The notes: generated by a model not told the origin, from the sequence alone. Shown: positions 19,768 through 39,290, counted from the stretch's first letter. The stretch: 60,308 nt of DNA from a virus (IMGVR_UViG_2923339551_000004), one strand, 5' to 3'. Program-made: numbers and translations.

Positions 19768-20557
19768 TTACGCCAGTTGTACGGACACGAACTCATCAGG
19801 GTCAGCCAGCAGCATCAGCGGTGCTGACTGAATCATGGTGAACTCACGCGCCGGATCGCCGGTGGTCACCCAGTTTTTCGGGTAACGGGCAGAGGCGTTA
19901 ATGCCTTCGCGCTGTGCGTCCGCATCCTGAATGCAGCCATAGGTGCGCAGACCGCGTGCATGAGTGTTACCCAGCACCATCGTGTTGTCCGGCAGGAAGT
20001 TCTTTTTGACGCCGTTTTCCACGTACTGTCCGGAATACACGACGATGGCCACATCGCCATACATCCCCTTATAGGACACCGCTTTACCCAGGTCTTTCAC
20101 CGCTGTCTCCAGCTCGGAATGAGAGCCGCGACGGGTATCCAGCTTCTCCTTGACGGCGTTGAAGGAACGGAACAGCGCCCAGCCTTTCGGATCAAACACG
20201 ATGATATTCACCACGCCGCTGGCGTTCAGCGCGTAGGCTTCGATATCGTCGGTCGGGTCATACGTGGACTTGTCACGCTTGCTCCACTCCGTGCCGCCGG
20301 ACTGCGTGATGTTGTTCGCCGCACTGCGGCCCATATCCACCTCAACCGGATCGAAGGCTTCACCGGTCATGGTGTATTTGCCCTTGAGCACGGCAGAAAC
20401 TGCCTGCATCTCTTCGACCTGAGCAATGGCCAGCTCTTCGTCACGCATGTTCTGCAGGATGATGCGACGGCGGCGGTAAGCCGGGTCCGCCAGATTCTGC
20501 GGATCTTCATCCGGCAGGCGACGCAGGGTCATCTGCGGATTCACTTCATGCTTGGGT
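19768..20557 (-). pseudogene. E: major capsid protein E, C-terminal fragment (codons ~83 to end) separated from its 5' part by the satellite insertion
   Basis: Translation ...PKHEVNPQMTLRRLPDEDPQNLADPAYRRRR... to ...EFVSVQLA matches lambda E from residue ~80; in-frame stop immediately upstream at the junction. Confidence 0.9.
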
Positions 20558-20712
20558 TACATGAGTCAATCCCGAAAGAACTATTTGATTTCACTTAGCT
20601 TTGTGGTTTATATATCTACGCAACTCCTATCACTGCAATACTTTCTGCAATACAGATATGTGTAGTGAGGACTTGTCTAAAAACCATATTCACGAAGAAA
20701 AAGGATGACACG

Positions 20713-21876
20713 ATGCAACCAGAAGATTATGAAGAAAAGCAATACGAGGATGAGCCAGAATCCTATCCAATTGATGAGTTTCAACTTACTACTACGCCCA
20801 ATGATTTTAATATAATCACAATTATAAGTTTTATTAAATCAAAAGTTTTTAAAATCCCTAACTTTCAAAGGCATTATGTTTGGGATATCAAACGAGCATC
20901 AAAACTCATTGAATCTCTTTTAATAGGCCTTCCTATACCTCAAATATTTTTATATGAACAAGATAAAAATGAATTTTTAGTGATAGATGGTCAGCAGAGA
21001 TTAATGACCCTTTATTACTTTGTAAATGGTGTATTCCCTAGAAAAGAGAAACGTTCTGAACTGAGAAAAATCTTTGAAGATAATGGAAACATTCCAGAAA
21101 ACATTCTTCACAATGATGAATACTTCACAAAGTTCAACCTAAAACTTGATGGTCTATCAGACACCCAAAAAAACAAGTTTAATGGGAAAAACTATGAAAC
21201 ATTAAACGAATTTCAAACCACTTTAAATCTGGCAACCATACGAAATATGGTAATCAAACCGGTTGCACAAGATTCGGAAGATGGTGCAATGTTTGAAATA
21301 TTTAACCGCCTAAATAGTGGGGGAATGAACCTTTCTCCTCAAGAAATTCGTATGAGTTTATATCACTCAGACTTTCTTTCAAATCTTGTTTCATTGAATG
21401 AAAACAAGACATGGAGAAAAATTCTTTCAAAAAATGTTGTTGACATGCGATTGAGTGATATTGAAGCGATATTGCGCACATTTGCTATGTCCCTTTTTAC
21501 ATCTCAATACAAAAGCTCAGTTAGCGGTTTTTTGAACAATTTCTCAAATTATGCAAAAAACTACGACACTAAAGACATAATTTTATTTAGTAATATATGG
21601 AATGAATTTATGGATAGTGTTGATGGAATTGATGAAATCAATTTCAGAACTGGTGGGAATCGTATGAGTATAACTTTATTTGAGTCAATTTTTTATGCTG
21701 CAACTTATGACTCATTTAAAGATAAAGATCTAAAAATAAGACAAGTGACGGTGAATTACATCGATAAGCTTAAAAATGATCCTGAATTTCTGACATTTAG
21801 TACTGATAAAACAACAAGAAGAGAGCATGTAATTGGACGTCTAGAACGTGCAAGAACAATTTTGGAGGGAATGTAA
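20713..21876 (+). CDS. DUF262 (ParB-like nuclease/NTPase fold, GmrSD N-terminal-domain-like) protein
   Basis: Motif FLVIDGQQRLMTLYYF (DGQQR signature of DUF262); AT-rich; start at ATG 20713 with RBS aaggatga (track ORF begins 20665). Confidence 0.7.
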   Translation: MQPEDYEEKQYEDEPESYPIDEFQLTTTPNDFNIITIISFIKSKVFKIPNFQRHYVWDIKRASKLIESLLIGLPIPQIFLYEQDKNEFLVIDGQQRLMTLYYFVNGVFPRKEKRSELRKIFEDNGNIPENILHNDEYFTKFNLKLDGLSDTQKNKFNGKNYETLNEFQTTLNLATIRNMVIKPVAQDSEDGAMFEIFNRLNSGGMNLSPQEIRMSLYHSDFLSNLVSLNENKTWRKILSKNVVDMRLSDIEAILRTFAMSLFTSQYKSSVSGFLNNFSNYAKNYDTKDIILFSNIWNEFMDSVDGIDEINFRTGGNRMSITLFESIFYAATYDSFKDKDLKIRQVTVNYIDKLKNDPEFLTFSTDKTTRREHVIGRLERARTILEGM

Positions 21877-21880
21877 AATA

Positions 21881-22429
21881 ATGGAGGATATGGGATATAC
21901 TTCTATTGAAAGTATGTTTAATAACTATAAGTGTTATTATGATTTTCTTCTAACTCATAATGAGATTAGTTTTGCTAATGATTACAAATCACAATTTTCA
22001 AAAGTAATGCTATTAGCATGTGCTAGCTATTTTGAAACTTTAGTTGTAACTAAGATACATTGTATGCTTAACCCAAGCCAATGTAATCTTACACACGATT
22101 TTATCGATAATAAGGCCCTAACCAGGCAGTATCATACACTCTTTGATTGGAAAAAAAGGAATGCAAACCAGTTTTTTTCCTTTTTTGGCCCAAAATTTAA
22201 AGAGTTTATGATTGAGAAGGTAAAATCAAGCACAGAGTTGACCAAGTCTATCTCTGATTTTATGGAAATCGGAGAGCTAAGAAATAAATTAGCACATAAT
22301 AATTATGCTACTTTTGTATTAGAAAGCACAGCTGAAGAGATTTATAATAAATTTTTAAATGCACATTCATTTGTCTCTCAACTAGATACGTTCAGTACAC
22401 AGTTTAGAGAGCAAATTGGTGAACAGTAA
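21881..22429 (+). CDS. hypothetical protein, possible HEPN-like partner of the DUF262 gene
   Basis: Start ATG 21881 preceded by ggaggga, 5 nt after the DUF262 stop; C-terminal motif ELRNKLAHNNY fits the Rx4H HEPN pattern; motif-level evidence only. Confidence 0.45.
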   Translation: MEDMGYTSIESMFNNYKCYYDFLLTHNEISFANDYKSQFSKVMLLACASYFETLVVTKIHCMLNPSQCNLTHDFIDNKALTRQYHTLFDWKKRNANQFFSFFGPKFKEFMIEKVKSSTELTKSISDFMEIGELRNKLAHNNYATFVLESTAEEIYNKFLNAHSFVSQLDTFSTQFREQIGEQ

Positions 22430-22466
22430 TAGTTTATCTCCAGCAAAAAAATAACTTGCAAATAAT

Positions 22467-22493
22467 AAAAGCGGTCGCGTGACCGCTTTTTTC
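22467..22493. terminator. bidirectional intrinsic terminator between convergent genes
   Basis: aaaagcggtcgcgtgaccgctttttt: hairpin flanked by an A-run and a T-run. Confidence 0.7.
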
Positions 22494-22687
22494 TATTTAT
22501 CATTGCTATTTTCCTTTATTATTTCAGCAATTGACATAACTAAGGCGTCTGCTTTATTTCTAGTCCTATCAAACATATCTCTAATTACATCAATATAATA
22601 ATGTTCCTCAAAAATATTTACGTATGACAAAAGTATTGCACAACTCTTGCCCAAAATGTCAGCCAGTTGATCTTTGTTGACTTCCAT
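22493..22687 (-). CDS. small ORF with a Nu1-like N-terminus (first ~15 aa) fused to unrelated AT-rich sequence
   Basis: MEVNKDQLADILGKS... versus helper Nu1 MEVNKKQLADIFGAS...; sits next to the satellite cos. Confidence 0.4.
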   Translation of the reverse strand: MEVNKDQLADILGKSCAILLSYVNIFEEHYYIDVIRDMFDRTRNKADALVMSIAEIIKENSNDK

Positions 22688-22699
22688 TGTTCATTCCAC

Positions 22700-22920
22700 G
22701 GACAAAAACAGAGAAAGGAAACGACAGAGGCCAAAATGCCCGTTTTCAGCGCCTGTCATTTCCTTTCTTTTCAGGGGGTATTTTAAATAAAAACATAAAG
22801 TTACGGCGAAGAAGAACGGAAATGCCTTAAACCGGAAAATTTCCATAAATAGAGAAAAACTGCGCGCCTGACGCCCCGTAGCCTGTCAGATCGCCGGAAA
22901 GGACCCGCCAGCCAGAGCGG
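22700..22920 (-). other. satellite cos region: lambda-like terminase-binding segment with a divergent cosN
   Basis: ~85-90% identity by eye to helper cos 38060..38290 over the terminase-binding segment; the cosN-equivalent 12-mer (22865..22876, cgcctgacgccc) differs from the helper (aggtcgccgccc) at 5 positions. Confidence 0.75.
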
Positions 22921-22932
22921 GCCCTAATTTCA

Positions 22933-23316
22933 TCAACCAATCAGCTTATAGCGACCATCCCGTGCATTGCGGCGTACACGCTCAATCTTGAGGCATAGCG
23001 CCGCATCTGGCTTTTTTGGGACAGGTACGCGGCAATATTCAGAAGCGCGAGGAATATTATTTATCCAGTCGATCACTTCACTTAAATACCAGGCCTTACG
23101 CCCTTCCGTAACCTGCACACGCTCCGGGAACTCTCCACTAGCCTCAAGGTTTAGCAGTGTACGCCGACTCAGGGTTGTAATTTCCATCACCTGATTCATA
23201 TCAACAAGGCGCTCGCTTAAACACATTTTGTCAGCGATAGCTTTTAATTCCTCTACAGCTGGATTCGGGTACATCATTTCGGCAATTGGCTTAAGGTCAT
23301 TGTAATCATTCTGCAT
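22933..23316 (-). CDS. AlpA-like HTH DNA-binding protein
   Basis: Central segment MEITTLSRRTLLNLEASGEFPERVQVTEGRKAWYLSEVIDWI resembles AlpA/Xis-type HTH; start uncertain. Confidence 0.55.
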   Translation of the reverse strand: MQNDYNDLKPIAEMMYPNPAVEELKAIADKMCLSERLVDMNQVMEITTLSRRTLLNLEASGEFPERVQVTEGRKAWYLSEVIDWINNIPRASEYCRVPVPKKPDAALCLKIERVRRNARDGRYKLIG

Positions 23317-23327
23317 TGTATCCCCCT

Positions 23328-23669
23328 TTACACACGAGCCAGCGGCTGAACAGAAATACCTGAGCCAACAAACGCGGCAACCTTTGCCGACAGTTCTCTT
23401 ACAGACTCAGGCCAGTTCAGAGCATCAACATTTAAAACACCTGTCTTATAAACCTGTGCCTGTGTTTTTTTCGCTGTGTCGATTTGTACAGCGGAAACAT
23501 AAACCGCTTTGCCTGCGCTCGTTCCATCCCATACCACTAGCGCACCAGTTGCATCTTCCTGCATCAGTGGCGTAAACGCAGGTATTACCCCTTTATTGGC
23601 TGAAAATATCCCCAGCGTAGTAACCAGTGCTTCAGTGCCAGACATGAGTTCAGTGTAATGAGTAGCCAT
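23328..23669 (-). CDS. head decoration protein D homolog (divergent), satellite-encoded
   Basis: 113 aa; recognisable similarity to lambda D (VVWDGTSAGKAV versus [13 protein letters not shown]), far more diverged than the helper D at 32164..32496. Confidence 0.7.
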   Translation of the reverse strand: MATHYTELMSGTEALVTTLGIFSANKGVIPAFTPLMQEDATGALVVWDGTSAGKAVYVSAVQIDTAKKTQAQVYKTGVLNVDALNWPESVRELSAKVAAFVGSGISVQPLARV

Positions 23670-23678
23670 TGCTCCCCC

Positions 23679-24719
23679 TTAGCCAATGCGAACGGTAACA
23701 AAACGATTGATGCGGGCCGGTATTGGCTGTGGTGCTGAATGTGTCTGCACATATTCAATAGCCGGATCACCAGGCACAATATAGTTTTTCGGTGCAAGTT
23801 CGGCTTTAGTCAGCCCCATTCGGATTAGCTCCGGATCCTGAATACCGCCATAGGCGACAATCCCCTGAAGAGCCGTATTGCCAAGCACCATCAAATCAGG
23901 ATCAAGGAAATGTTTTTCAGTTCCGTCCTCGTCGGTATAACGCCCGCTGTATACAACAATCGCAACATCGCCCATATACCCTTTAAAACTCACCGAATCA
24001 CCAAGGTCTTTAAGGGCCGTTTCCAGTTCGGAATTAGAACCACGACGGGTATCCAGAGCCTCTTTTATCGCTCTGAATGAACGGTATTTCTTCCATACAT
24101 TACCGCCCATAATGATGATATTAGTGACGCCCTCACTAAATTCTGCGTAGCTCTCAATATCATCATTTGGATCAAAAGTTTCTTTATCCTTACCTGACCA
24201 CTCAGCACCGCCAGACTGAGTGATGATATTTTGTGGTTTAATATTCCAGTCCAGCTCATAACGTTCAATACCATCGCCCTCAATGATATTTTTCCCCGTT
24301 GTGATTGCCTGAACGGCAAGCCATTCAATACGTGCACGAATAGCTTTAGCCTGATTTACAATCGCCTGTTTAACTTTAATATTACGCGCTCCAAAAGCAT
24401 TGTATTGCTCAGGTGATACACCAGCAGGGCGCACAGCTAACTTATTTGGATCAATGCTGCTTTTCGGCTTCATATAGCCTGGACGAATTGTTTTTGATTC
24501 GTACCCTTCGTCACGTGAAACTTTACTACCCACCATAGGAGAACAAAACGCTGCAATTGGGATATTTGGATCGTCGATTGTATCAAGAATAATATCGCGC
24601 GATTCAAACATTACCGAGCGAGTAAAAAACAAACTGGTAAACAACGCATTTAGTTGTTTTTGTACATCTACAGCATTAACCACCTGTACAAGCTGGGTAG
24701 GCGAATATAAATCAACCAT
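23679..24719 (-). CDS. major capsid protein E homolog (divergent), satellite-encoded
   Basis: About half the positions shared with lambda E over the C-terminal part (TRRGSNSELETALKDLG, GDVAIVVYSG); start at ATG 24719 with aagagg RBS (track ORF begins 24893). Confidence 0.8.
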   Translation of the reverse strand: MVDLYSPTQLVQVVNAVDVQKQLNALFTSLFFTRSVMFESRDIILDTIDDPNIPIAAFCSPMVGSKVSRDEGYESKTIRPGYMKPKSSIDPNKLAVRPAGVSPEQYNAFGARNIKVKQAIVNQAKAIRARIEWLAVQAITTGKNIIEGDGIERYELDWNIKPQNIITQSGGAEWSGKDKETFDPNDDIESYAEFSEGVTNIIIMGGNVWKKYRSFRAIKEALDTRRGSNSELETALKDLGDSVSFKGYMGDVAIVVYSGRYTDEDGTEKHFLDPDLMVLGNTALQGIVAYGGIQDPELIRMGLTKAELAPKNYIVPGDPAIEYVQTHSAPQPIPARINRFVTVRIG

Positions 24720-24936
24720 ACGCATCCTCTTTGCATTCATTAAAAATAATTGTGGATATATGCTATCACCGATATTTGTCATGCGAATACATGCAACCGA
24801 GTGCAATGTTGTATAAAGTTTTGGGATGACAACTTCAGCACGGATAATTAGTGTTAATATCTTCACTCCCTTTGGTCTGGATTTATGTAGCATGCCGGAA
24901 AATTTATTTTTTTCCGGCCTTTTTTATTGGCAATAT

Positions 24937-25386
24937 TTAAAGCGGAATATCATCTCCCCATTGCTCATTATCTCCCACTGGTGGATGGCTTCCTTGCTGA
25001 TCTGCCTGTTGTTTTGCTCTGTTCAGTGCGTCAGTAGCCTGCCCCTGTTGGCCTTTTTTGCCGCCCGGTCGCACCGATCGCGCACTGATTACGCTGTCTG
25101 CGATAACCTGCCAGCCCTGCCGCGTTTCACCGTTCTGTCCAGTCCACTGGCTCACCTGCATATTACCCGCCACGCTCAGGAGTTCGCCTTTGTGATGCTT
25201 TGCCAGCGTGTCGGCTTGTCTGCCAAACGCCAGCACAGATAACCACATCGTCGCCGTTCCGTCATCTGCCTGGCTGCATGGCAAAGATACCGCCATCCAT
25301 GCCAGTGTCATGGGTGTTCCCTTGCTGGTATGTTTTACCTGTGGGTCGTCCACCAGCCGCCCGTAAGCTGCTATTTGCGCCGTCAT
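24937..25386 (-). CDS. single-stranded DNA-binding protein-like (SSB-like)
   Basis: 149 aa; OB-fold-like N-terminus, Gly/Gln-rich tail and terminal DDIPL resembling the SSB C-terminal DDDIPF. Confidence 0.6.
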   Translation of the reverse strand: MTAQIAAYGRLVDDPQVKHTSKGTPMTLAWMAVSLPCSQADDGTATMWLSVLAFGRQADTLAKHHKGELLSVAGNMQVSQWTGQNGETRQGWQVIADSVISARSVRPGGKKGQQGQATDALNRAKQQADQQGSHPPVGDNEQWGDDIPL

Positions 25387-25397
25387 GCTGCCTGCTC

Positions 25398-25640
25398 TCA
25401 GGACTTAATATTGATGGTTGTCACTTCCTCCGCTTCGGCAATCTCCCGTTCGGTCAGCGTGGCAAAGTTTGCAGCCGCCGTTGTCATGAATGCGCTTATC
25501 AGTTCGGGATGTGCTTTCGCGTATCCTTCCCCGGCGTTGCGGTCTATTGCCTTAATCGCCACCCTTAGCCAGTGTTCAGCCATATCAAGGGCGCGGTAAT
25601 GTGGCTTTATATGTTTGTTCAGTTTTCCTGATGTGTGCAT
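25398..25640 (-). CDS. hypothetical protein
   Basis: 80 aa ORF between the origin and the SSB-like gene. Confidence 0.4.
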   Translation of the reverse strand: MHTSGKLNKHIKPHYRALDMAEHWLRVAIKAIDRNAGEGYAKAHPELISAFMTTAAANFATLTEREIAEAEEVTTINIKS

Positions 25641-25685
25641 TTTTATTTTTACCCCCTCGTTTAAAAAGTTTTTTGTGCACCACCA

Positions 25686-25918
25686 CCTTGTCTACCTTGT
25701 CTACCTGATTAGTTATCAGGCCAGTAATGGCGCGGGTTTCAGGGAGGTAGACAGCCCCAAATAGCTGTCTACCTCATCTCTACCCGTCTCCTTACCTGTC
25801 TACAAAAATGGGTAGATAAGGTAGATAACAGGTAGACAGTGAAAAATAGTTATCTACCTGCATTAATACATTGAAATAAAAGTATTTTATTTCAGTCAGG
25901 TAGACAAGGTAGATAACC
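25686..25918. repeat. iteron array, putative satellite replication origin
   Basis: At least 11 copies of GGTAGA(C/T)A / T(A/G)TCTACC in both orientations, irregularly spaced, immediately 3' of the primase/helicase gene. Confidence 0.75.
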
Positions 25919-25929
25919 ATTGCCATTTT

Positions 25930-27681
25930 TTATAAAAACGCATCGCAATCATCAGTAGTCGTTGCGTTGGTCTGCGTGACTCCCTTAACTTTTCGAGTAA
26001 TATATTCATATCCGTAAACTTTCGCCGCTGACCTCATAGCCTTTCCGAACTCATTCACGCTCAAACATTTCCCCTTTCCTGTATATGCCATGAAGGCCAT
26101 ATAGACACGGTAAAGGCTGTTTCTGGTCGTGTACTTCACGGTGTCACCACCACCGCCCATCATTAGCCCACGAGCTTCCTCCAGAAACTCCAGCGCCGCG
26201 CAAAGCTCAACAACCGGATCCGTTTGCTGCTTTATTGCCAGAGCTTCATCACCGTCACGCTGTTCCAGTAATAAAGCCCGTGCCTTTTCAGGGTCAGCAA
26301 AATTAGCCAGCAAGCGGCGGATAATTACGGGGATTTCTGCCGCTATCTTTTCCGGTAATTCCTTGTCTTTTTCGTCCTCCCTTACAATGTTGTCGAACCG
26401 GAAAATCACCCGACGGCGTGACACACCTCCGGCCCGTTCGGTAAAGATCATCGGGTCGTTATTGGTTGCCAGTACCACCGCCCTTATTATCGTCGTGAAT
26501 CGCTTCTCATATTTCGGGTTAATTTCAACGGGATCGCCTCCCGTGATTTTCTTGATGCCCGTGCCTTCCCCCGTATATTTCGGCTGATCGGCAAGGACGA
26601 TAAGACGACTCCCGACAACCTGCGCACGCCCTCCTGCATCATCGAGTGATGTCATCTCTGCGCTTACGGTGTTCTGTTTGCCAGCAAGCAGGGTGGCAAT
26701 ATGGGTAAATGTACTCTTACCGCTTCCCCCGTCTCCGGTGGCCTCAATGAACATCTGCCAGTCGTACCGGTTCGCCATAATCATGTACAGCGCGGCACAT
26801 ATACGCATCATCTTGCGCGGGTCTTTTCCGGCTGCGTGCTCAAGCCATTTATGAAAGTTTGGCGCGTTATCGCGGATGTTCTCCCCTGGTGCTGGTGGCG
26901 TGTACTCAATGCCGTTGTGCGTGGTGATCCAGTTCTCCGGCGTGTGCGGGGAAAATTCCCCCGTTTTCAGGTCAAGCGCACCATTGGCGAACGGCAGCAA
27001 ATCGCCGGACGGCTCGCCCATTGGTTCGGCAATAACTTTTAACGCTTCAACGGCGTTATTGATCACGCGTTTGCTGAAAGTGGCCCTGTGCTCTGAATAG
27101 ATCGCCACCATTTCGCGGCTCAGCTCCATTGTGCTGATCGGACACCATACCCCGCCGCGCCATACGTGAACGATTTCACTTTCCGGATGCACACAAACGC
27201 CATCAAAGCGCTCGGCAAGCAGCTGCGCGCGCTCACTGTCTGCCATCTGTGAAAGTTGCGCCTTTTGCTTCGTCGGAAGATTAAGCACCAGGCTTTCCCC
27301 ACGCTCGCATTCCTCTTTGAGTCGCGGCAACTGGTCGGATAAATCCACTGGGCTGGTGTCAGTAATCCCCGCGTATTCGTGTACGGTCTTCACTCCAGCC
27401 ACAGCCAGTAACGTAACAATCTGCGTCATGCTGTGCTCTGTGATATGTCCTGCGCGGTAAACACGCACACACTGACGATCTTCATCAATGATCCGGTAAT
27501 CGGTGATGTTTTTCAGTTGCTCATCAGCCAACACGACAGGCGGCACATCGTCGGCGGCAATATGTTTACCCGCCCATTCCTGCCACTCTTTCGCATGGCT
27601 CCACGCATCACTACCTGCAAAGATGATTATCTCTGTCAGTCTGTCGCGTGGCTGTTTTTTTAAGTTCGGTGCCAGTTTCAT
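25930..27681 (-). CDS. replication protein: primase/helicase (P4 alpha / D5-like SF3 helicase family)
   Basis: 583 aa; Walker A EATGDGGSGKSTF; sits next to the iterons. Confidence 0.75.
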   Translation of the reverse strand: MKLAPNLKKQPRDRLTEIIIFAGSDAWSHAKEWQEWAGKHIAADDVPPVVLADEQLKNITDYRIIDEDRQCVRVYRAGHITEHSMTQIVTLLAVAGVKTVHEYAGITDTSPVDLSDQLPRLKEECERGESLVLNLPTKQKAQLSQMADSERAQLLAERFDGVCVHPESEIVHVWRGGVWCPISTMELSREMVAIYSEHRATFSKRVINNAVEALKVIAEPMGEPSGDLLPFANGALDLKTGEFSPHTPENWITTHNGIEYTPPAPGENIRDNAPNFHKWLEHAAGKDPRKMMRICAALYMIMANRYDWQMFIEATGDGGSGKSTFTHIATLLAGKQNTVSAEMTSLDDAGGRAQVVGSRLIVLADQPKYTGEGTGIKKITGGDPVEINPKYEKRFTTIIRAVVLATNNDPMIFTERAGGVSRRRVIFRFDNIVREDEKDKELPEKIAAEIPVIIRRLLANFADPEKARALLLEQRDGDEALAIKQQTDPVVELCAALEFLEEARGLMMGGGGDTVKYTTRNSLYRVYMAFMAYTGKGKCLSVNEFGKAMRSAAKVYGYEYITRKVKGVTQTNATTTDDCDAFL

Positions 27682-27977
27682 TTTTTGCCCCTGAATGCGT
27701 TAATCATGCTTTTCATTTTCTGGATGTTTCCCCGCGCTTTTTCCCTGCTGATGGGCTTACTACGGGGTGCGGCATATACCAGGGAAAAATCACGCCGGAA
27801 CTGATAAACAGGCATCACGCAGTCATAGCTATACCCCTCACGACGGTAAGTGATGCGCCGTTCTGCCACGCCTTTAATCGTTACCGTGCCGCCGTATTTA
27901 TCGCGGTAAATATCGCCGTTCATAAATTCAGGCCGAGCGGGGCCGCTGGCAATAAAGCCAGAATTTTTCATTTCCAT
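27678..27977 (-). CDS. hypothetical protein (replication-operon small ORF)
   Basis: 99 aa; stop overlaps the primase start (27678..27681). Confidence 0.45.
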   Translation of the reverse strand: MEMKNSGFIASGPARPEFMNGDIYRDKYGGTVTIKGVAERRITYRREGYSYDCVMPVYQFRRDFSLVYAAPRSKPISREKARGNIQKMKSMINAFRGKK

Positions 27978-27994
27978 ATTATTTATTCCTCGAC

Positions 27995-28216
27995 TTAACT
28001 CGACTTATTTGATAGCAGGGCACTATTTATTGCGTCATTGAGTTTTTCTGCTGCTTCATCAATAAGTGACAACAGGCCATAAGCAATATTTGCATCTTCA
28101 TTGTCATTTATGCAATCAAGCCACATATTTAATATTGCTTTTGCTGAATTATTTAAAGTTAATGAACTTTCTGCACATGCTAACAATTTAAAAAAGACTT
28201 CCCGTTCTGTATTCAT
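27995..28216 (-). CDS. hypothetical protein
   Basis: 73 aa ORF, AT-rich. Confidence 0.35.
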   Translation of the reverse strand: MNTEREVFFKLLACAESSLTLNNSAKAILNMWLDCINDNEDANIAYGLLSLIDEAAEKLNDAINSALLSNKSS

Positions 28217-28408
28217 TTAATCCCCCACCAGCTTACTTTCTTCCTCAATCAAAAAACTAGCGACACTTCCCGAAAGACGCGCCAGTAGGCTCGCCAGTGC
28301 GGATATATCAGCATCTGTAATTTTGTTCGGGTATACCTCAAGAAGGCGGCAAATAATTTCTGTCTGGTGCGCACGTTCAGCGGCTTCGTGTAATGTGATT
28401 TCCTGCAT
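28217..28408 (-). CDS. hypothetical protein
   Basis: 63 aa ORF abutting neighbours. Confidence 0.35.
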   Translation of the reverse strand: MQEITLHEAAERAHQTEIICRLLEVYPNKITDADISALASLLARLSGSVASFLIEEESKLVGD

Positions 28409-28593
28409 TAATGCACCTCTTTTAATTCATACACTGCTGAAATAATGACTTGTGATAAGCCATATTCTGATGATTCGCTTCTCACCGCAGCAATAGCCGT
28501 CTGAACATTAACAGCCTTCACATTCTGAGCGATACCAATTGTGTGGCCTATTGGGTTAACAGCTCGGGCAAATACACGGAAGGTTTTAAGCAT
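28408..28593 (-). CDS. hypothetical protein
   Basis: 61 aa ORF abutting neighbours. Confidence 0.35.
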   Translation of the reverse strand: MLKTFRVFARAVNPIGHTIGIAQNVKAVNVQTAIAAVRSESSEYGLSQVIISAVYELKEVH

Positions 28594-28787
28594 GACTCAC
28601 TCCCTGGCGGATTTTTGCAGCGAATACAGCAACACAACCGGACGGGCAACGGCTACGCGCTTCGCGTTCCGTCCAGGCGGTTACGTGGATGATTTGAGAT
28701 TCTCCGGCACTCAGTGCCAGAAAACGCCACACAAAGGCCGTTTGTGTGTGTACAAGGTGTGGTATATGATTTACAGCAACCATAACG
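28587..28787 (-). CDS. hypothetical protein, first gene of the leftward satellite operon
   Basis: 66 aa from ATG 28787 with aggag RBS; below the 60-aa track cutoff as a separate ORF because it is embedded in the spurious 28586..29317 frame. Confidence 0.4.
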
Positions 28788-28973
28788 GCTCCTAGTTTAC
28801 GTTGTTGGTTAGACGCCCCGTATGTGTTCCCAGCACTGCGGGGCGTTGCTCTTTGTATTTCAACAATCCTTTCGGTGTGTTTCATGTTATGAGCGCATGA
28901 AACACACGTCAAGGCTTTTTGTATTTCTTTTTTTGTGTATACTGAAACACACCGATGATTAGGAGTTTCAGAA

Positions 28974-29279
28974 ATGGCAACGGCTAACAAAAACGCAAAA
29001 TCACAACTGACAACTGTCAGAGTCCCACTAGATGTTATGCAAGGGATGGAATCCGTTAAGCTGGACGGTGAAAGCAATGCCGGATTTATCGTAACCGCCA
29101 TGCGCGGTGAAATCGCCCGCCGCCAGGCAGAAGGAAGCGGAGAAAATCCCCTCGTGTCTTCACTGGATGCCTTAGCTAAGGTCGAACAAATCGGCATCAA
29201 GGCAGCGGAGGAAATCGGGCAACTCGTAGCCGTCGCTCGTGAAGAACTCCAGCGGCGTAAAGCCAAAGAATCTGAATAA
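28974..29279 (+). CDS. hypothetical protein, divergently transcribed from the replication operon (possible regulator)
   Basis: 101 aa; RBS aggag upstream; divergent arrangement typical of a satellite control region. Confidence 0.45.
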   Translation: MATANKNAKSQLTTVRVPLDVMQGMESVKLDGESNAGFIVTAMRGEIARRQAEGSGENPLVSSLDALAKVEQIGIKAAEEIGQLVAVAREELQRRKAKESE

Positions 29280-29629
29280 TTAGTATCAGCGCCGTGATGT
29301 GAGTAACTACGGCGCATTGCTATGTAAATACTGGCAATAAACAGAAAAGGTAGTTCTACTCCGAATAATTTTATCTGACACTACTCCTGAACTAACATGC
29401 GCTTATCTTACAGGATATAAATATAAATCCATAAAATCACGATTAAATAAAGTCGCTCCAAACATAAACCACACCCAACGCTTAACAAGATAGCAACAAA
29501 CAGGTAAATAACTTGCAGAAATATTTATCGCAAGGATTATCATTATTAATGACAAATCACTTTACCAAGTCATTCCCCTCTCTTATCATAAAGAGAAAGT
29601 AATAAATAAGTTAAGGGAGTTAGAATGCT

Positions 29630-30166
29630 ATGAATCTAAAAAAAATAGCCACAAACACAAAAAACAAGATAACAGAAACATTTAATAAACTTATATTAGA
29701 GGCATCTAAAACCCCCACGCAAGATGAAATTAAAATACTTGAGAGAAGGAGTAAGAAGTTTAATTACTCCTTTTTCTCATACGCAGTCACAGGAGCTATA
29801 ATAGTTTTTTGCTCTCAACCATTAATTAAATACGCAAACCCAATACTTATTTTATTGAGTGGTCTGTTACTGTCTATCATCATTATCATTCTCAGAATGA
29901 TTTATATTTCACAAGCGAATGCATCATGGACAACCAAAAAACGCTCACATGTACTAGTTCATTTTCTTTCTGCATGTTTCATAGCATCAACATTGACGTT
30001 GCTATATCAGGCTTACGATAATAACATCACACACAAATTGTACTGTAAAAATATACAACAACTTATTGAAAAAAGGATAGAAACAGAAAAAAACATCAGC
30101 ATATTCAGTGGGATGCAATGCACCCCGGTATATGATTACTCTTTATTTGGATTTAATCTCTTATAA
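29630..30166 (+). CDS. AT-rich predicted membrane protein
   Basis: 178 aa; two strongly hydrophobic segments (AIIVFCSQPLI, ILILLSGLLLSIIIIILRMIYI); very low GC; aagggag RBS. Confidence 0.5.
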   Translation: MNLKKIATNTKNKITETFNKLILEASKTPTQDEIKILERRSKKFNYSFFSYAVTGAIIVFCSQPLIKYANPILILLSGLLLSIIIIILRMIYISQANASWTTKKRSHVLVHFLSACFIASTLTLLYQAYDNNITHKLYCKNIQQLIEKRIETEKNISIFSGMQCTPVYDYSLFGFNLL

Positions 30167-30235
30167 AGAATGTTATTACTGATTTGAGTACAAATTCTCA
30201 AATCAGTAATTCATAATATTTTATTCTGAGATAAT

Positions 30236-30472
30236 TTAAACTACCCACTCACCTCGAATCCATGCCTGCACTTCTGAAAGACGATATGCAACAGCAGTGG
30301 AACCAATCTTGATCCGCTTAGGAAATTTTCCTTCCTTCTCCAGCTTCCAGCGTGTGCTGTTCGCAAGAGTGGTTAGCTCCCGACATTCTTTCTCACGGAT
30401 CATTCGGTCAATGTTAGGAATGTACTCCAGACCCTTTTTATCAACAATTGCCATTTTTTTCATGTTAACCAA
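30236..30472 (-). CDS. alpA: AlpA-family transcriptional regulator / excisionase-like
   Basis: 78 aa, ...ELTTLANSTRWKLEKEGKFPKRIKIGSTAVAYRLSEVQAWI; directly downstream of the integrase. Confidence 0.7.
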   Translation of the reverse strand: MVNMKKMAIVDKKGLEYIPNIDRMIREKECRELTTLANSTRWKLEKEGKFPKRIKIGSTAVAYRLSEVQAWIRGEWVV

Positions 30473-31700
30473 CCTTTTGTTTGAGGATTGTCACTTTTGA
30501 ATCAGCACCTGCGATGCTATTGAGATATGTAGTCCAGAGTTCCAGAGCATCCAGTTTTTTAGCCATAAACTTACTCCGGTTGTAAACACCTGCCACGCCA
30601 GGTAGCGCATGGCCTAACAGTTGTTCTACTACATAAAATTCAACACCGAGATCACTTAGATGAGTAGATAGCGTTCTTCTAAGGTCGTGTAGTGACCATT
30701 GTTTTTCATGGCCCAAACGTTTACCGATTTTCCCCCCAATCTTGCTTACGCTTTCTCTAATTCGCAGACTTCCCAGCACATAACCAGTATGTTTTGTCTC
30801 TTCGTGAACATCCGTTACCCACTGTCGTAGAATTTCAGGTACTGGTCTGACGATTTCAACACCAGTTTTTGAGTGATCTTTTGGTACAGTCCAAACCCAA
30901 CTTTCGAGATCCCATTCGCTCCATTCTGATAATCGGGCTTCACTCATTCGACATCCAAATACTGTACAAAGCACAAACATTTTTCGCGTGTATTCAGACA
31001 TTAGTTTTAAATCAGGCTCGACAAAAATTGCCTTCCAGAGCTGGCCGAGTTCGGCTTCATCCAGAACCCGATCCCGCTTACCTGCAATCTGCCCCACATC
31101 ACTCATGCGCAAATCCTTTAAAGCATCACACGTCGCGTACTGGCGTACCCGACAAAAACGAAGAGCTAATTTAGTGTCAGAAAAAACATACGCCGCCATA
31201 ACTGGTGCATTACGTTTAATTCGGTCAAAACAGTCCAGCCATTCATATAGGTGAGTGTCATTTACGGGCAAATGACCGATATAGGGAAAGATATGCTTTC
31301 GAAATCTGCCAAGCGTTACAGCATGAGTTTTACGACGCACCTTACAGTAATTTTCATACCAGTAATTTAGTGCATCCTCCACTGTAACCGGCTTTAAGCG
31401 TTCTTCAGCCTGAATCTTAATCTGGATACGCGGATCACGTTTGTCAGCCAACCAACCACGGCACTCGTCGCGCTTTTCCCTTGCCTGTTTGAGTGACATA
31501 TCAGGATATTTACCCAACGTTAGCCAGACCGGAGCAGCCCGGCCACCTGCTAACCTGTAGAAGAAAACAAAGCTCACAGCCCCTTTAGTACTCACACGAA
31601 TAGAAAGCCCCTTTCCATCAGCAATGGTGATCTGCTTTTCTCTGGGTTTCCCCAGATATCCTTTAAGCGCTTTGTCGCTCAGTTTGTTCTCGCCAGCCAT
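30465..31700 (-). CDS. int: tyrosine recombinase / integrase (P4-type), satellite
   Basis: C-terminal catalytic region with HDLRRT and LLGH...Y motifs; start placed at MAGENKL (track ORF extends to 31751); adjacent to the att repeat. Confidence 0.85.
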   Translation of the reverse strand: MAGENKLSDKALKGYLGKPREKQITIADGKGLSIRVSTKGAVSFVFFYRLAGGRAAPVWLTLGKYPDMSLKQAREKRDECRGWLADKRDPRIQIKIQAEERLKPVTVEDALNYWYENYCKVRRKTHAVTLGRFRKHIFPYIGHLPVNDTHLYEWLDCFDRIKRNAPVMAAYVFSDTKLALRFCRVRQYATCDALKDLRMSDVGQIAGKRDRVLDEAELGQLWKAIFVEPDLKLMSEYTRKMFVLCTVFGCRMSEARLSEWSEWDLESWVWTVPKDHSKTGVEIVRPVPEILRQWVTDVHEETKHTGYVLGSLRIRESVSKIGGKIGKRLGHEKQWSLHDLRRTLSTHLSDLGVEFYVVEQLLGHALPGVAGVYNRSKFMAKKLDALELWTTYLNSIAGADSKVTILKQKVG

Positions 31701-31832
31701 TTTTAGCCCCAAAAAGCAATACAAGCTGCAATACAGAGATGATTGCAACACACAGATAACGAGGAAAATTCAGTGAAAGCACCAGATAAACTTATTCTTT
31801 ATTATCAAAAGATTAAGTGTAAAAACCAGCAA

Positions 31833-32108
31833 CTACACGAAAGCCTCAGAAAGCCATGCTAAGTGCTTGGGTTTGACATATCCCGGCGTAAATTCAGAGG
31901 TGGAGCCGCCACGGGAACGGATAACCTCACCGGAAACAATCGGCGAAACGTACAGCGCCATGTTTACCAGTCCCGGAATTTGTGAGAGATAGACTTTCTC
32001 CGTAGTGAAGGGATAGCTCTCACGGAAAAAGAGACGCAGAAACAGCGGATCAAACTTAAATTTCTGCTCATTTGCCGCCAGCAGCTGGGCGGTTGTGTAC
32101 ATCGACAT
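31833..32108 (-). pseudogene. E: major capsid protein E, N-terminal fragment (82 aa) fused to 9 satellite-encoded codons
   Basis: MSMYTTAQLLAANEQKFKFDPLFLRLFF...GYVKPKH then LAWLSEAFV and stop; breakpoint at the KPKH codons. Confidence 0.9.
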
Positions 32109-32163
32109 AAAAAAATCCCGTAAAAAAAGCCGCACAGGCGGCCTTTAGTGATGAAGGGTAAAG

Positions 32164-32496
32164 TTAAACGATGCTGATTGCCGTTCCGGCAAACGCGGTC
32201 CGTTTTTTCGTCTCGTCGCTGGCAGCCTCCGGCCAGAGCACATCCTCATAACGGAACGTGCCGGACTTGTAGAACGTCAGCGTGGTGCTGGTCTGGTCAG
32301 CATCAACCGCCAGAATGCCAACGGCAGCACCGTCGGTGGTGCCATCCCACGCAACCAGCTTACGGGTGGAGGTATCCAGCATCAGCGGGGTCATTGCAGG
32401 CGCTTTCGCACTCAATCCGCCGGGCGCGGTTGCCGTATGTGCCGGGTCACTGTTGCCCAGCGGCTGGTAATGGGTAAAGGTTTCTTTGCTCGTCAT
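32164..32496 (-). CDS. D: head decoration protein D
   Basis: [27 protein letters not shown]..., near-identical to lambda D. Confidence 0.95.
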
Positions 32497-32505
32497 AAAC
32501 ATCCC

Positions 32506-33805
32506 TTACACTGGTGTGTTCAGCAAATCGTTAACGGCATCAGATGCCGGGTTACCTGCAGCCAGCGGTGCCGGTGCCCCCTGCATCAGACGATCCAGCG
32601 CAGTGTCACTGCGCGCCTGTGCACTCTGTGGTGCAGCTGCCAGAATGCGGCGGGCCGTTTCCACGGTCATACCGGGGGTTTCGGCCAGCACGCGTGCCTG
32701 TTCTTCGCGTCCGTGAGCCTCCTCACAGTTGAGGATCCCCATAATGCGACTGTTTTCTGCCGCAACCGCTGCGGTGATCTGCGCGTTCACGTCCGGCTGC
32801 GCCGCGCTGGCGTTCTCGCCCTCCGTCGCTTGCACCACGCCAGTAACGTCAGCCTGCGAAGCAGTGGCTGAAACAGTTGTTGATTGAGTCTCTTTGGTCA
32901 TTCGCCCTCCTGAGAGACGGGATTTACGTGCATCCAGTGCATCACGCATGACGGTGATCGCATCGGTACTGTTAACAAGTTCATCAGCCAGTCCGGCATC
33001 AATGGCCTCCTGACCGCTGTACACTGCAGCCTCGGTATCCAGCACAGCCTGCACGGACAGGCCGGTATATGCCGACACCTTCTGCGCAAACATCTGACGG
33101 GTTGCGTCCATCCGGGACTGCAGTGTCTCCCGGACGTCATCCGGAAGATGGCTGTAGGGATTGCCATCCACCTTATGGCTGCCGCTGTAAATCAGCGTGA
33201 TTTCCACACCCTGTTTCTCCAGGGCAGCACCGTAATTACTGTGAGCCATCATGACGCCGATGGAGCCTGTCCGGGCGGTCTGCGTGACCAGACGCCGGGA
33301 GGCGGCACTGGCAAGCAGCTGACCTGCACTGCAGTTCATGTCGTTGGCCAGCGCCCATACCGGTTTTATGTCACGCACACGGGCGATGATGTCAGCGCAG
33401 TCAAATGCCCCCGCCACCATTCCGCCTGGCGTGTCCATATCGAGCAGAATGCCGTCCACCATCGGGTCGCTGGCAGCCTGTTGCAGACGGGCGATAATGC
33501 CGTTGTAACCGGTCATCCCCGAGTACGGCTGCAGCGCCCGCGTCCGGCTGACCAGCGTGCCGGACACCGGCAGCACGGCGATGCCGTTCATGACCTGATA
33601 ACTGCGGGCCTGTCGTGGTCCGTCATCATCACCGGATAATGCCAGCGTCGCGAGTGCCTCCTGGGCAGTCAGGCTGTCGCCGGACACCGCATCCGTCAGG
33701 CGGCTGATCCCAAGCTGGCCTGCAAGCGCACAAAAGAAAACCCGCGCATAGGCGGGTTCAAGCATCAGCGGCTCATTAAAGGCCATGCTGGCAATATGCG
33801 GGAGA

Positions 33806-33815
<10 letters not shown>
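32506..33815 (-). CDS. C: capsid assembly protease C with nested scaffold Nu3
   Basis: Lambda C homolog (TAELRNLPHIASMAFNEPLMLEPAYARVFF); likely GTG start at 33815 with aggagg RBS, overlapping the B 3' end; the track ORF extends to 33960. Confidence 0.9.
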
Positions 33816-37506
<3,691 letters not shown>

Positions 37507-37532
<26 letters not shown>

Positions 37533-38052
37533 TCAGCAACCCCGGTATCAGTTCATCCAGCGCGGCTGCTTTGTTCATAGCTTTGATGATATCCCGTTTC
37601 AGGAAATCAACATGTCGGTTTTCCAGTTCCGGAAAACGCCGCTGCACCGACAGGGGGATCCCGTCGAGAATACTGGCAATTTCACCTGCGATCCGCGACA
37701 GCACGAAAGTACAGAATGCGGTTTCCACCACTTCAGCTGAGTCTCTGGCATTCTTCAGTTCCTGTGCGTCGGCCTGCGCACGCGTAAGTCGATGGCGTTC
37801 GTACTCAATAGTCCCTGGCTGCAGATCTGTCTCGCTGGCCTGCCGCAGTTCTTCAACTTCCCGGCGCAGCTTTTCGTTCTCAATTTCAGCATCCCTTTCG
37901 GCATACCATTTTATAACGGCGGCAGAGTCATAAAGCACCTCATTACCCTTGCCACCGCCTCGCAGAACGGGCATTCCCTGTTCCTGCCAGTTCTGAATGG
38001 TACGGATACTCGCACCGAAAATGTCAGCCAGCTGCTTTTTGTTGACTTCCAT
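37507..38052 (-). CDS. Nu1: terminase small subunit Nu1
   Basis: 181 aa, MEVNKKQLADIFGASIRTIQNWQEQGMPV. Confidence 0.95.
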
Positions 38053-38149
38053 TGTTCATTCCACGGCCAAAAACAGAGAAAGGAAACGACAAAGGCCCAA
38101 AAGTTCGTTTTCAGCACCTGTCGTTTCCTTTCTTTTCAGGGGTTATTTT

Positions 38150-38290
38150 AAATAAAAACATTAAGTTACGACGAAGAAGAACGGAAACACCTTAAACCGG
38201 AAAATTTTCATAAATAGCAAAAACCCGCGAGGTCGCCGCCCCGTAACCTGTCGGATCGCCGGAAAGGACCCGTAAAGTGATAATGATTAT
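38150..38290 (-). other. cos: helper prophage cos site, with the 12-nt cohesive-end sequence at 38230..38241
   Basis: aggtcgccgccc is the reverse complement of the lambda cohesive end GGGCGGCGACCT; flanked by cgtaacctgtc (lambda right end). Confidence 0.9.
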
Positions 38291-38440
38291 CATCTACATA
38301 TCACAACGTGCGTGGAGGCCATCAAACCACGTCAAATAATCAATTATGACGCAGGTATCGTATTAATTGATCTGCATCAACTTAACGTAAAAACAACTTC
38401 AGACAATACAAATCAGCGACACTGAATACGGGGCAACCTC

Positions 38441-38635
38441 ATGTCAACGAAGAACAGAACCCGCAGAACAACAACCCGCAACATCCGCTTTCCTAACCAA
38501 ATGATTGAACAAATTAACATCGCTCTTGAGCAAAAAGGGTCCGGGAATTTCTCAGCCTGGGTCATTGAAGCCTGCCGTCGGAGACTAACGTCAGAAAAGA
38601 GAGCATATACATCAATCCAGAGTGATGATGAATAA
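38441..38635 (+). CDS. hypothetical protein, conserved lambda right-end ORF
   Basis: 64 aa ORF between cos and bor. Confidence 0.5.
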   Translation: MSTKNRTRRTTTRNIRFPNQMIEQINIALEQKGSGNFSAWVIEACRRRLTSEKRAYTSIQSDDE

Positions 38636-38996
38636 ACATCCCGGTTTCTTCCACCATCGCACCGGAAAAGCGACTATGAGGGTAACCCTGCGTCTGTCAG
38701 CACAGTAAAACCCGGTGTGCATCGTTTTTGATTATTCCCGCACACTCACGCAGAAGGAATTCCCCGTCGGGCTACGGTCATGGTTAATGCGGGAATACGG
38801 CGACGATACAGCGCAGCTAAAAGGGTAATGGACAGAAAGAGCGGTTTATTTCATTCCACAGGATTCTGAGTGCCCCCCCCTCCTCCAATAGGCTGAGCAT
38901 CCACCTATATAGTTTTAATTTTCATCAATCCATTTAACTATCGTTTAATTGTTGTCACATAGGATTCTGCCGTTTTTAACAATGCAGGATAATAAG

Positions 38997-39290
38997 ATGA
39001 AAAAAATGTTGTTTTCTGCCGCTCTGGCAATGCTTATTACAGGATGTGCTCAACAGACGTTTACTGTTGGAAACAAACCGACAGCAGTAACACCAAAGGA
39101 AACCATCACCCATCATTTCTTCGTTTCGGGAATTGGACAGGAGAAAACTGTTGATGCAGCCAAAATTTGTGGCGGCGCAGAAAATGTTGTTAAAACAGAA
39201 ACCCAGCAAACATTCGTAAATGGATTTCTCGGTTTTATTACTTTAGGCATTTATACTCCGCTGGAAGCGCGTGTGTATTGCTCACAATAA
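38997..39290 (+). CDS. bor: Bor lipoprotein
   Basis: MKKMLFSAALAMLITGCAQQTFTV...; lipobox LITGC; start placed at MKKML. Confidence 0.9.
   Translation: MKKMLFSAALAMLITGCAQQTFTVGNKPTAVTPKETITHHFFVSGIGQEKTVDAAKICGGAENVVKTETQQTFVNGFLGFITLGIYTPLEARVYCSQ

Follow-up and report, generated by a model that had tools for sequence, protein, structure and literature searches.

Introduction

The closest described counterpart of the locus dealt with here is the satellite 11capE, reported by Tommasini, Mageeney and Williams (bioRxiv 10.1101/2022.07.18.500453) within the prophage 50icd of Escherichia coli NRG857c. The same study pointed out a 258-bp, 90%-identical sequence common to 11capE and 50icd at the position of the lambda cos site, and presumed packaging through the helper cos machinery, cosN, the cohesive ends and Nu1 never being named; neither virions nor plaque-forming units were recovered from the NRG857c lysogen. 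A second reference system is EcCICFT073 (Fillol-Salom et al. 2018, 2019; PMC6092414, PMC6739421), also a Gram-negative cos-type PICI, which is packaged as multimers into phage-sized heads by a lambda-type terminase, combines a canonical cosN and cosQ with an unrelated cosB, and uses the protein Rpp to retarget TerS.

As for the lambda cos site itself, the work of Feiss et al. (2015; PMC4669245) revealed a functional asymmetry of cosN. Mutations of bp 7–12 were of minimal effect and the right-half variants were efficiently nicked by TerL, the bottom-strand nick being positioned by the terminase anchored at cosB, which makes bp 7–12 tolerant. The constrained and conserved parts are the left half of cosN, the flanking CG pairs and cosQ. 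Natural variants listed there are those of N15 and phiD326, at bp 9 and 12, and of Gifsy-1, at bp 8, 9 and 11. With regard to the small terminase subunit Nu1, its recognition helix covers the residues 17–24 and its wing the residues 31–39 (PMC9026076).

Results

The satellite and its helper

The window, i.e. the whole stretch of DNA analysed, comprises 60,308 nucleotides (IMGVR_UViG_2923339551_000004). The satellite occupies 20549–31873 on the minus strand, with 11,315 bp between its 10-bp att cores, and lies inside the helper capsid gene E, being co-oriented with it (Table 1). All the core genes of the satellite—those for an integrase, AlpA, a D5-type primase, SSB, homologues of the capsid proteins E and D, and the 127-aa AlpA-family protein—are found on the minus strand, the same as the late genes of the helper (Nu1 and gpA, then W, B, C and D), so that the element possesses the features of a helper-embedded satellite or Gram-negative PICI. 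The E-like gene (23679–24893) is 48% identical to helper E and the D-like gene (23328–23669) 38% identical to helper D.

The whole satellite exhibits 99.8–100% identity to its counterparts in E. coli NRG857c and 14EC020, the cos region being 100% identical to that of 14EC020 and 99.8% to that of NRG857c. Judged by its sequence, the element is the published helper-embedded satellite Eco567.11capE, located in gene E of an icd-type lambdoid prophage, and it shares with the 11capE/50icd pair both the insertion point in gene E and the gene order. The features described below, mainly the differences at 5 of the 12 positions of cosN and the terS remnant, are added detail on this known element and do not define a new entity. 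The AlpA-like gene of the satellite is present in 374 of the 5426 complete E. coli genomes. Relatives with the same late module, embedded in the portal gene, were also seen in complete E. coli genomes (L218, L226, L227 and L228), and a query made of the portal-gene junction gave matches covering 80% or more of it in 64 of the 5426 complete genomes.

Table 1 Features of the satellite and of its helper (positions in the window)
Feature	Position	Strand	Remarks
Gene E of helper, two parts	31833–32135 and 19768–20544		Reading frame split by the insert
att cores, 10-bp direct repeat	20549–20558 and 31864–31873		TGCTTGGGTT
AT-rich convergent two-gene cargo	20665–22429	+	
Terminator-like hairpin, bidirectional	22467–22490		10-pair stem, T tracts on both strands
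64-aa ORF	22493–22687	-	Preceded by the Nu1 ribosome-binding site; Nu1-like over ~15 codons, AT-rich and unrelated thereafter
cosB, gpNu1-binding segment	22712–22828	-	R3, I1 IHF-site region, R2, R1
R1	22712–22727	-	CTGTCGTTTCCTTTCT; bp 150–165, same position as in helper
R2	22753–22768	-	AGAAAGGAAATGACAG; bp 109–124, same position as in helper
R3	22813–22828	-	AAGGCATTTCCGTTCT; bp 49–64, same position as in helper
cosN	22863–22878	-	Core GGGCGTCAGGCG at 22865–22876, CG at both predicted nick sites
cosQ, packaging-termination signal	22900–22906	-	GGGTCCT; identical to helper 38265–38271, same 30-nt distance from nick
127-aa AlpA-family helix-turn-helix protein	22933–23316	-	Pfam PF05930, PHROG 2790, PDB 8c3t
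gpA of helper	35607–37532	-	641 aa
Nu1 of helper	37507–38052	-	Intact, 181 aa
Helper cos	38008–38272	-	cosQ, canonical lambda cosN and cosB, equal to the lambda cos subsites; Nu1 and gpA follow

The AlpA-like gene and the 64-aa ORF flank the cos-like block of the satellite. The former always adjoins cos in the satellite family, its stop codon being located just upstream of cosQ; in approximately 50 loci its 3' end was found 56 nt before the search pattern, which itself starts 4 nt upstream of bp 1 of cosN. On the other side, the hairpin closes the late operon of the satellite as well as the cargo operon convergent with it. The first gene of this cargo encodes a GmrSD_N/DUF262 protein with NsnA and PD-T4-2_A as the best PADLOC matches, the second one a RiboL-PSP HEPN protein with a weak match to PD-T4-2_B, and the two together probably make up an anti-phage defence system of the satellite. 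Other cargo (TIR, Abi, DUF2971) takes their place in sibling satellites. There is also an AT-rich ORF of 178 aa (29630–30166, plus strand) with apparent hydrophobic segments, oriented opposite to the core genes, for which no match was obtained in PHROG or PADLOC. The Rfam scan of 20000–39000 and the tRNA scan found no RNA genes.

The cos block shared with the helper

Comparison of the two cos regions (by MAFFT and an ungapped comparison) showed that the satellite segment 22643–22907 corresponds to the helper segment 38008–38272 over 265 bp without any gap, with 32 mismatches (87.9% identity). Upstream, the homology begins 1 nt before cosQ; downstream, it spans the ribosome-binding site and the start codon of Nu1 (ATG at 22687 in the satellite and at 38052 in the helper) and fades at about codon 15–16. 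The homology of 22690–22920 with the helper cos, noticed in the preliminary description, is thus real, but its outer limits, 22920 and 38290, have to be moved inwards to the nucleotide preceding cosQ. The cosN of the satellite is 15,365 bp away from that of the helper, and both have the same orientation.

All the subsites of a lambda-type cos could be recognized. The cosQ heptamer precedes the top-strand nick by 30–24 nt. Read along the lambda strand, cosN of the satellite (22876 to 22865) is CG/GGGCGTCAGGCG/CG, whereas that of the helper (38241 to 38230) is GGGCGGCGACCT and equals that of lambda; bp 1–5 (GGGCG) and both CG pairs are the same in the two sites. The cosB segment consists of R3, the IHF site and the inverted R2 and R1, with fixed spacing from cosN, and its I1 region has one base unlike the helper, in the degenerate part of the IHF consensus. 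The claim of a second, satellite-borne cos with a helper-type terminase-binding segment was therefore borne out by cosQ, the R sites and the spacings, all as in the helper. The same holds for the reported difference in the cohesive-end core, which concerns bp 6, 8, 9, 10 and 12, and hence for the expectation that the predicted cohesive ends of the satellite are unlike those of the helper at 5 of the 12 positions. It should be noted that one and the same G to A substitution is found at matching positions of the R3 and R2 repeats in the satellite (CATTTCC versus CGTTTCC), with R1 unchanged; the same base is present in R2 of phi80, and for this reason the change is assumed to be tolerated.

The mismatches between the satellite and the helper are concentrated in cosN, i.e. 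5 of 12 positions there versus 20 of 208 in the remaining cos block (binomial P=0.004), and the pattern therefore looks like a replacement of the allele, not like ordinary drift. Similarity to phage DNA collapses straight after R1, which marks the stretch from cosQ to R1 as a conserved unit; within it, the spacing of the R sites is constant across 24 satellite haplotypes.

Natural distribution of the cosN variant

Concerning the five changes themselves, four (bp 8, 9, 10 and 12) are found within bp 7–12, and the fifth, G to T at bp 6, is outside, on the border of the constrained left half; what is known of its effect on nicking comes only from natural occurrence in phage-context cos sites, among which bp 6 varies too. 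In an IMG/VR sample of about 115 lambda-like cos sites, collected with bp 6–12 left free, the sites preceding Nu1 and gpA exhibited at least 11 alleles, some of them with T or A at bp 6. In phages as well, cosN alleles behave like stable cassettes, the canonical one being present in 46 of the 54 phage sites.

The exact variant, together with its flanks, was encountered at 61 loci, about 50 of which are satellites containing the module of E-like, D-like and AlpA-like genes and cos. Four others (L008, L014, L026 and L041) were discarded as cos sites, being chance matches in unrelated GC-rich DNA. The same allele was also found in three phage contexts (L012, L049 and L060), with Nu1 99% and gpA 99–100% identical to those of the present helper, the head-gene set of L049 being intact and uninterrupted; L022 is probably a further ordinary phage context. 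A confinement of the variant to satellites was thus rejected, since these phage loci carry it beside the same terminase. In the GenBank phage collection, the isolated phages PhiR46_1 and YDC107_1 possess the allele GGGCGGAAGGCG, which has bp 8–12 as in the satellite allele. The gpA of PhiR46_1 is identical to the helper gpA in 633 of 641 residues (98.8%), so that such right halves are naturally paired with a helper-like terminase.

A different kind of variation was observed in L217, a chromosomal relative, and in nine satellite loci from IMG/VR (L177, L182, L185, L192, L200, L206, L209, L211 and L212), where the core is canonical but position 13 is T and not C (GGGCGGCGACCT/TG), which alters the CG flank described as highly conserved by Feiss and colleagues.

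Satellite and helper cosN compared across the family

For a scan of the family, cosN was left free and the pattern was anchored at the satellite-specific junction of the AlpA-like gene (3' end) with cosQ; the 91 satellite-anchored loci obtained comprised 51 with the variant, 34 with the canonical and 6 with other alleles. Satellites with the lambda-type cosB, 43 in number and representing 24 haplotypes, all possess the variant and none has the allele of the helper; bp 6–12 are invariant among them, whereas the adjacent spacers are variable and recombination with canonical phage DNA has taken place in the flanks. Where a satellite has a different cosB and a distant terS of its own, either cosN allele occurs. 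One of the haplotypes differs from a canonical phage by a single position in each flank (of 30 and 178, respectively), but at 5 of 12 in cosN.

Both cos sites were also read in composites, i.e. satellite plus helper, from complete E. coli genomes. In the capsid-gene composites, GGGCGTCAGGCG in the satellite faces GGGCGGCGACCT in the helper in all eight cases examined. As for the portal gene, one composite is mismatched in another way, with the canonical allele in the satellite and GGGCGGAAGGCG in the helper, and three (L226, L227 and L228) have identical, canonical cosN in both, owing to which a mismatch cannot be taken as the rule for embedded satellites. Capsid-gene satellites with a canonical cosN were not found in the complete E. 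coli genomes, the best full-length matches all having the variant.

The association of the variant with the lambda-type cosB is compatible with linkage, because cosN and cosB are approximately 50 bp apart and may have been captured as one block; selection, instead of neutral hitch-hiking, could also have produced it.

The 64-aa ORF and the terS position

The preliminary description had the 64-aa ORF starting exactly like Nu1, which applies to the first five residues but not to those that follow: 12 of the first 16 residues are identical and no similarity is seen beyond them. The PDB match to TerS covers only the residues 1–19 (E=1.6), and the ORF had no Pfam, PHROG or significant PDB match. 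Only the segment preceding the recognition helix is retained, the wing and the TerL-binding parts being absent as well, so that the ORF does not belong to the gpNu1 family. Its relatives among 5.8 billion proteins are limited to eight near-identical clusters from E. coli, several of them altered at the 3' end by IS5. In E. coli CS18F (L222; NZ_CP074576.1, 2797201–2798182), for instance, ISKpn26 of the IS5 family is inserted in the 3' part of the ORF, this insertion resulting in protein variants of 68–78 aa in several assemblies.

The siblings display various states of the terS position. In some of them, a terS of 183 aa is found, with the residues 1–102 approximately 99% identical to the helper Nu1 and a diverged C-terminal TerL-binding part; others have this same gene with an internal stop, or a terS of 36% identity accompanied by a different cosB, and in still others there is nothing at this position, the homology stopping right after R1. 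Since the siblings carry a full, stopped, divergent or no terS there, the 64-aa ORF is, on sequence grounds, what remains of the 5' part of a terS that the satellite has lost, now joined to cargo DNA; in the satellite studied here, it would be the defence-gene cargo that replaced terS. The suggestion of a Nu1 remnant, made as one of two possibilities in the preliminary description, has gained from these siblings with full or pseudogenized Nu1-like terS and from the IS5 disruption.

The 183-aa chimeric terS, absent from the window, was seen in L040, L021, L052 and L215, in some genomes with an internal stop. Its residues 1–102 correspond to the DNA-binding and dimerization parts, and the diverged C-terminal stretch of about 80 residues to the TerL-binding region. 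The sibling protein might serve either as a true decoy or as an adaptor for a different TerL.

Search for a redirecting protein

An Rpp was sought in the satellite by BLASTP, using a 146-aa RppA-like query from an EcCICFT073-type island against all six-frame ORFs of at least 40 aa; the best hit had E=2.2, while Nu1 was found with the same query at E=5e-6. The phmmer searches of PDB with the two ORFs flanking cos did not return an Rpp chain either, and no Rpp or TerS homologue was found in the satellite. The arrangement is thus not that of an Rpp-type redirection, no Rpp having been found, the cosB being phage-like and cosN the part that differs. From the combination of no Rpp with a helper-like cosB it follows that packaging presumably uses the helper Nu1 and gpA directly. 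The published transduction data for EcCICFT073 were considered as evidence on the variant allele and set aside, since both its cos1 and cos2 contain the canonical cosN.

Discussion

Considering the anatomy, the conservation pattern and the allele distribution observed here, together with the absence of Rpp and terS, it is fairly probable that the locus is the cos site of an 11capE-type, Gram-negative PICI satellite that has kept a functional cosQ-cosN-cosB array, carries a natural cosN allele and is followed by a decayed terS. The cosN would be a naturally circulating allele, changed mainly in the unconstrained half and carried in together with the phage-type cosB, rather than an engineered incompatibility.

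The packaging of such a satellite might proceed as follows. Upon induction, it would excise from the helper gene E and form concatemers, using its own primase and origin. The helper gpNu1 and IHF would bind the helper-like R3-I1-R2-R1 array and the helper gpA would nick cosN, the bottom-strand nick being placed, through cosB, by the small subunit bound at R3 and expected to be insensitive to bp 7–12, and the top-strand nick relying on the conserved left half (bp 1–5) and the flanking CG. Since a single unit measures 11.3 kb, terminase would cut at roughly one cos in four, to give 45.3 kb or 93% of the lambda length, and such four-unit molecules agree with published reports of multimer packaging in Gram-negative PICIs. 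The particles would then contain DNA with the 12-nt ends GGGCGTCAGGCG, able to anneal mutually but not to the helper ends. In the unexcised composite of approximately 60 kb, packaging that started at the satellite cos and stopped at the helper cos would cover approximately 45 kb, a packageable length, and leave mismatched ends.

There are, however, other ways of looking at the same site. It might be a decaying relic, with a cos that is unused or poorly used, an eroded cosN and a truncated Nu1, persisting vertically in a defective prophage. This would agree with the lack of plaque-forming units and virions from the NRG857c lysogen and with the terS position decaying across the family by premature stops, truncation and IS5 insertion. 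Erosion would, nevertheless, hardly leave cosQ, the CG pairs, the left half of cosN, the R sites and the spacing intact both here and in 24 haplotypes while the DNA immediately past R1 is freely replaced; moreover, the element resides in hundreds of unrelated E. coli genomes, as judged from its AlpA-like gene (374/5426), with many different cargoes, which implies horizontal spread. A relic thus seems quite improbable. Opposite to decay, selection may keep the satellite ends unlike those of the helper, thereby blocking hybrid cyclization or the joining of helper and satellite ends. The evidence for such an adaptive incompatibility consists of the mismatch in the eight capsid-gene composites and one portal-gene composite, the presence of the variant in all 43 satellites with the helper-type cosB (24 haplotypes), without any variation at bp 6–12 despite varying spacers, and the haplotype with near-phage flanks (1/30 and 1/178) that still differs at 5/12 in cosN; in addition, a 2-nt end mismatch lowers the yield about fourfold (PMC4669245), so that five mismatches should be severe. 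Yet the cosN of L226, L227 and L228 is that of their helpers, the family is polymorphic (34/91 loci canonical), ordinary prophages carry the same allele, and the capsid-gene composites represent few lineages sampled many times over. The association is, furthermore, explained by linkage to a single captured block, given the approximately 50 bp between cosN and cosB, and no evident fitness is gained by a satellite from killing hybrids. For these reasons, adaptive incompatibility is considered unlikely. The suggestion in the preliminary description that cosN was re-coded against co-packaging or recombination is not supported, four of the five changes being in the tolerant bp 7–12 and bp 6 varying naturally, with the same allele in ordinary prophages, a polymorphic satellite family and three portal-embedded relatives matching their helper. 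A stronger version, in which the satellites with the helper cosB actively maintain ends unlike those of the helper and the unexcised composite yields no cyclizable hybrids (helper deletion derivatives conferring immunity), is rather doubtful, too. If true, the maintained end mismatch would label packaged DNA as 'self' or 'non-self' at the sequence level, and a selected mismatch would represent a novel type of barrier separating the satellite genome from that of its helper, which the present evidence does not favour.

With regard to the 64-aa protein, it may be asked whether it functions as a decoy of the small terminase subunit or modulates that subunit, e.g. by pairing with Nu1 via the shared N-terminal helix. 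The retained ribosome-binding site and start of Nu1 and the position of the ORF in the late operon upstream of the terminator would fit such a role, and TerS-like N-terminal domains (Rpp) at this genomic position are able to hijack TerS (PMC6739421). On the other hand, the relatedness to Nu1 is limited to the residues 1–16, with four substitutions, all of it located before the recognition helix and wing. Apart from near-identical copies in E. coli, there is no family, fold or homologue, the ORF is absent from most sibling satellites, in which the homology stops before the ATG, and IS5 disrupts it in several genomes. A decoy is, accordingly, very improbable, and this part of the preliminary description was not upheld, the protein having only near-identical E. 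coli relatives and an IS5-interrupted gene, and being devoid of the recognition helix, the wing and the TerL-binding parts.

With its helper-type terminase-binding site and no Rpp, the present satellite lineage follows a route opposite to that of EcCICFT073, and its packaging should depend directly on the helper Nu1 and gpA. The predicted DNA ends could be used to show packaging of 11capE-type satellites for the first time. The results also add detail to two published stories, i.e. those of the helper-embedded satellites and of the functional asymmetry of cosN.

Comparison with known systems

The cos of the satellite agrees with the lambda cos in the subsites, their order, orientation and spacing, the left half of cosN, the CG pairs and the distance to the Nu1 start. 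It is unlike lambda in 5 bp of cosN, in one G to A change each in R3 and R2, in being followed by a 15-codon stump of Nu1 and not by the terminase genes, and in its location within an 11.3-kb satellite. When compared with the cosN sites of N15, phiD326 and Gifsy-1, the same pattern of functional asymmetry is evident, although the satellite has more changes, five, including those at bp 6 and 10. Its allele occurs mostly in satellites, the nearest one of isolated phages being GGGCGGAAGGCG.

EcCICFT073 and the present satellite, for which packaging is presumed, have a common order in the late zone: capsid, decoration protein, small ORF, cos and a gene at the terS position. Whereas the former has retained the canonical cosN and changed cosB, retargeting TerS by means of Rpp, the latter is its mirror image. 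A like strategy, with a copy of the helper packaging site on a small replicon without a terminase of its own, is represented by P4 with P2 and by SaPIbov5 with cos phages. Both P4 and SaPIbov5, however, use the cohesive-end sequence of their helper, whereas the predicted ends of the satellite described here differ from those of its resident helper.
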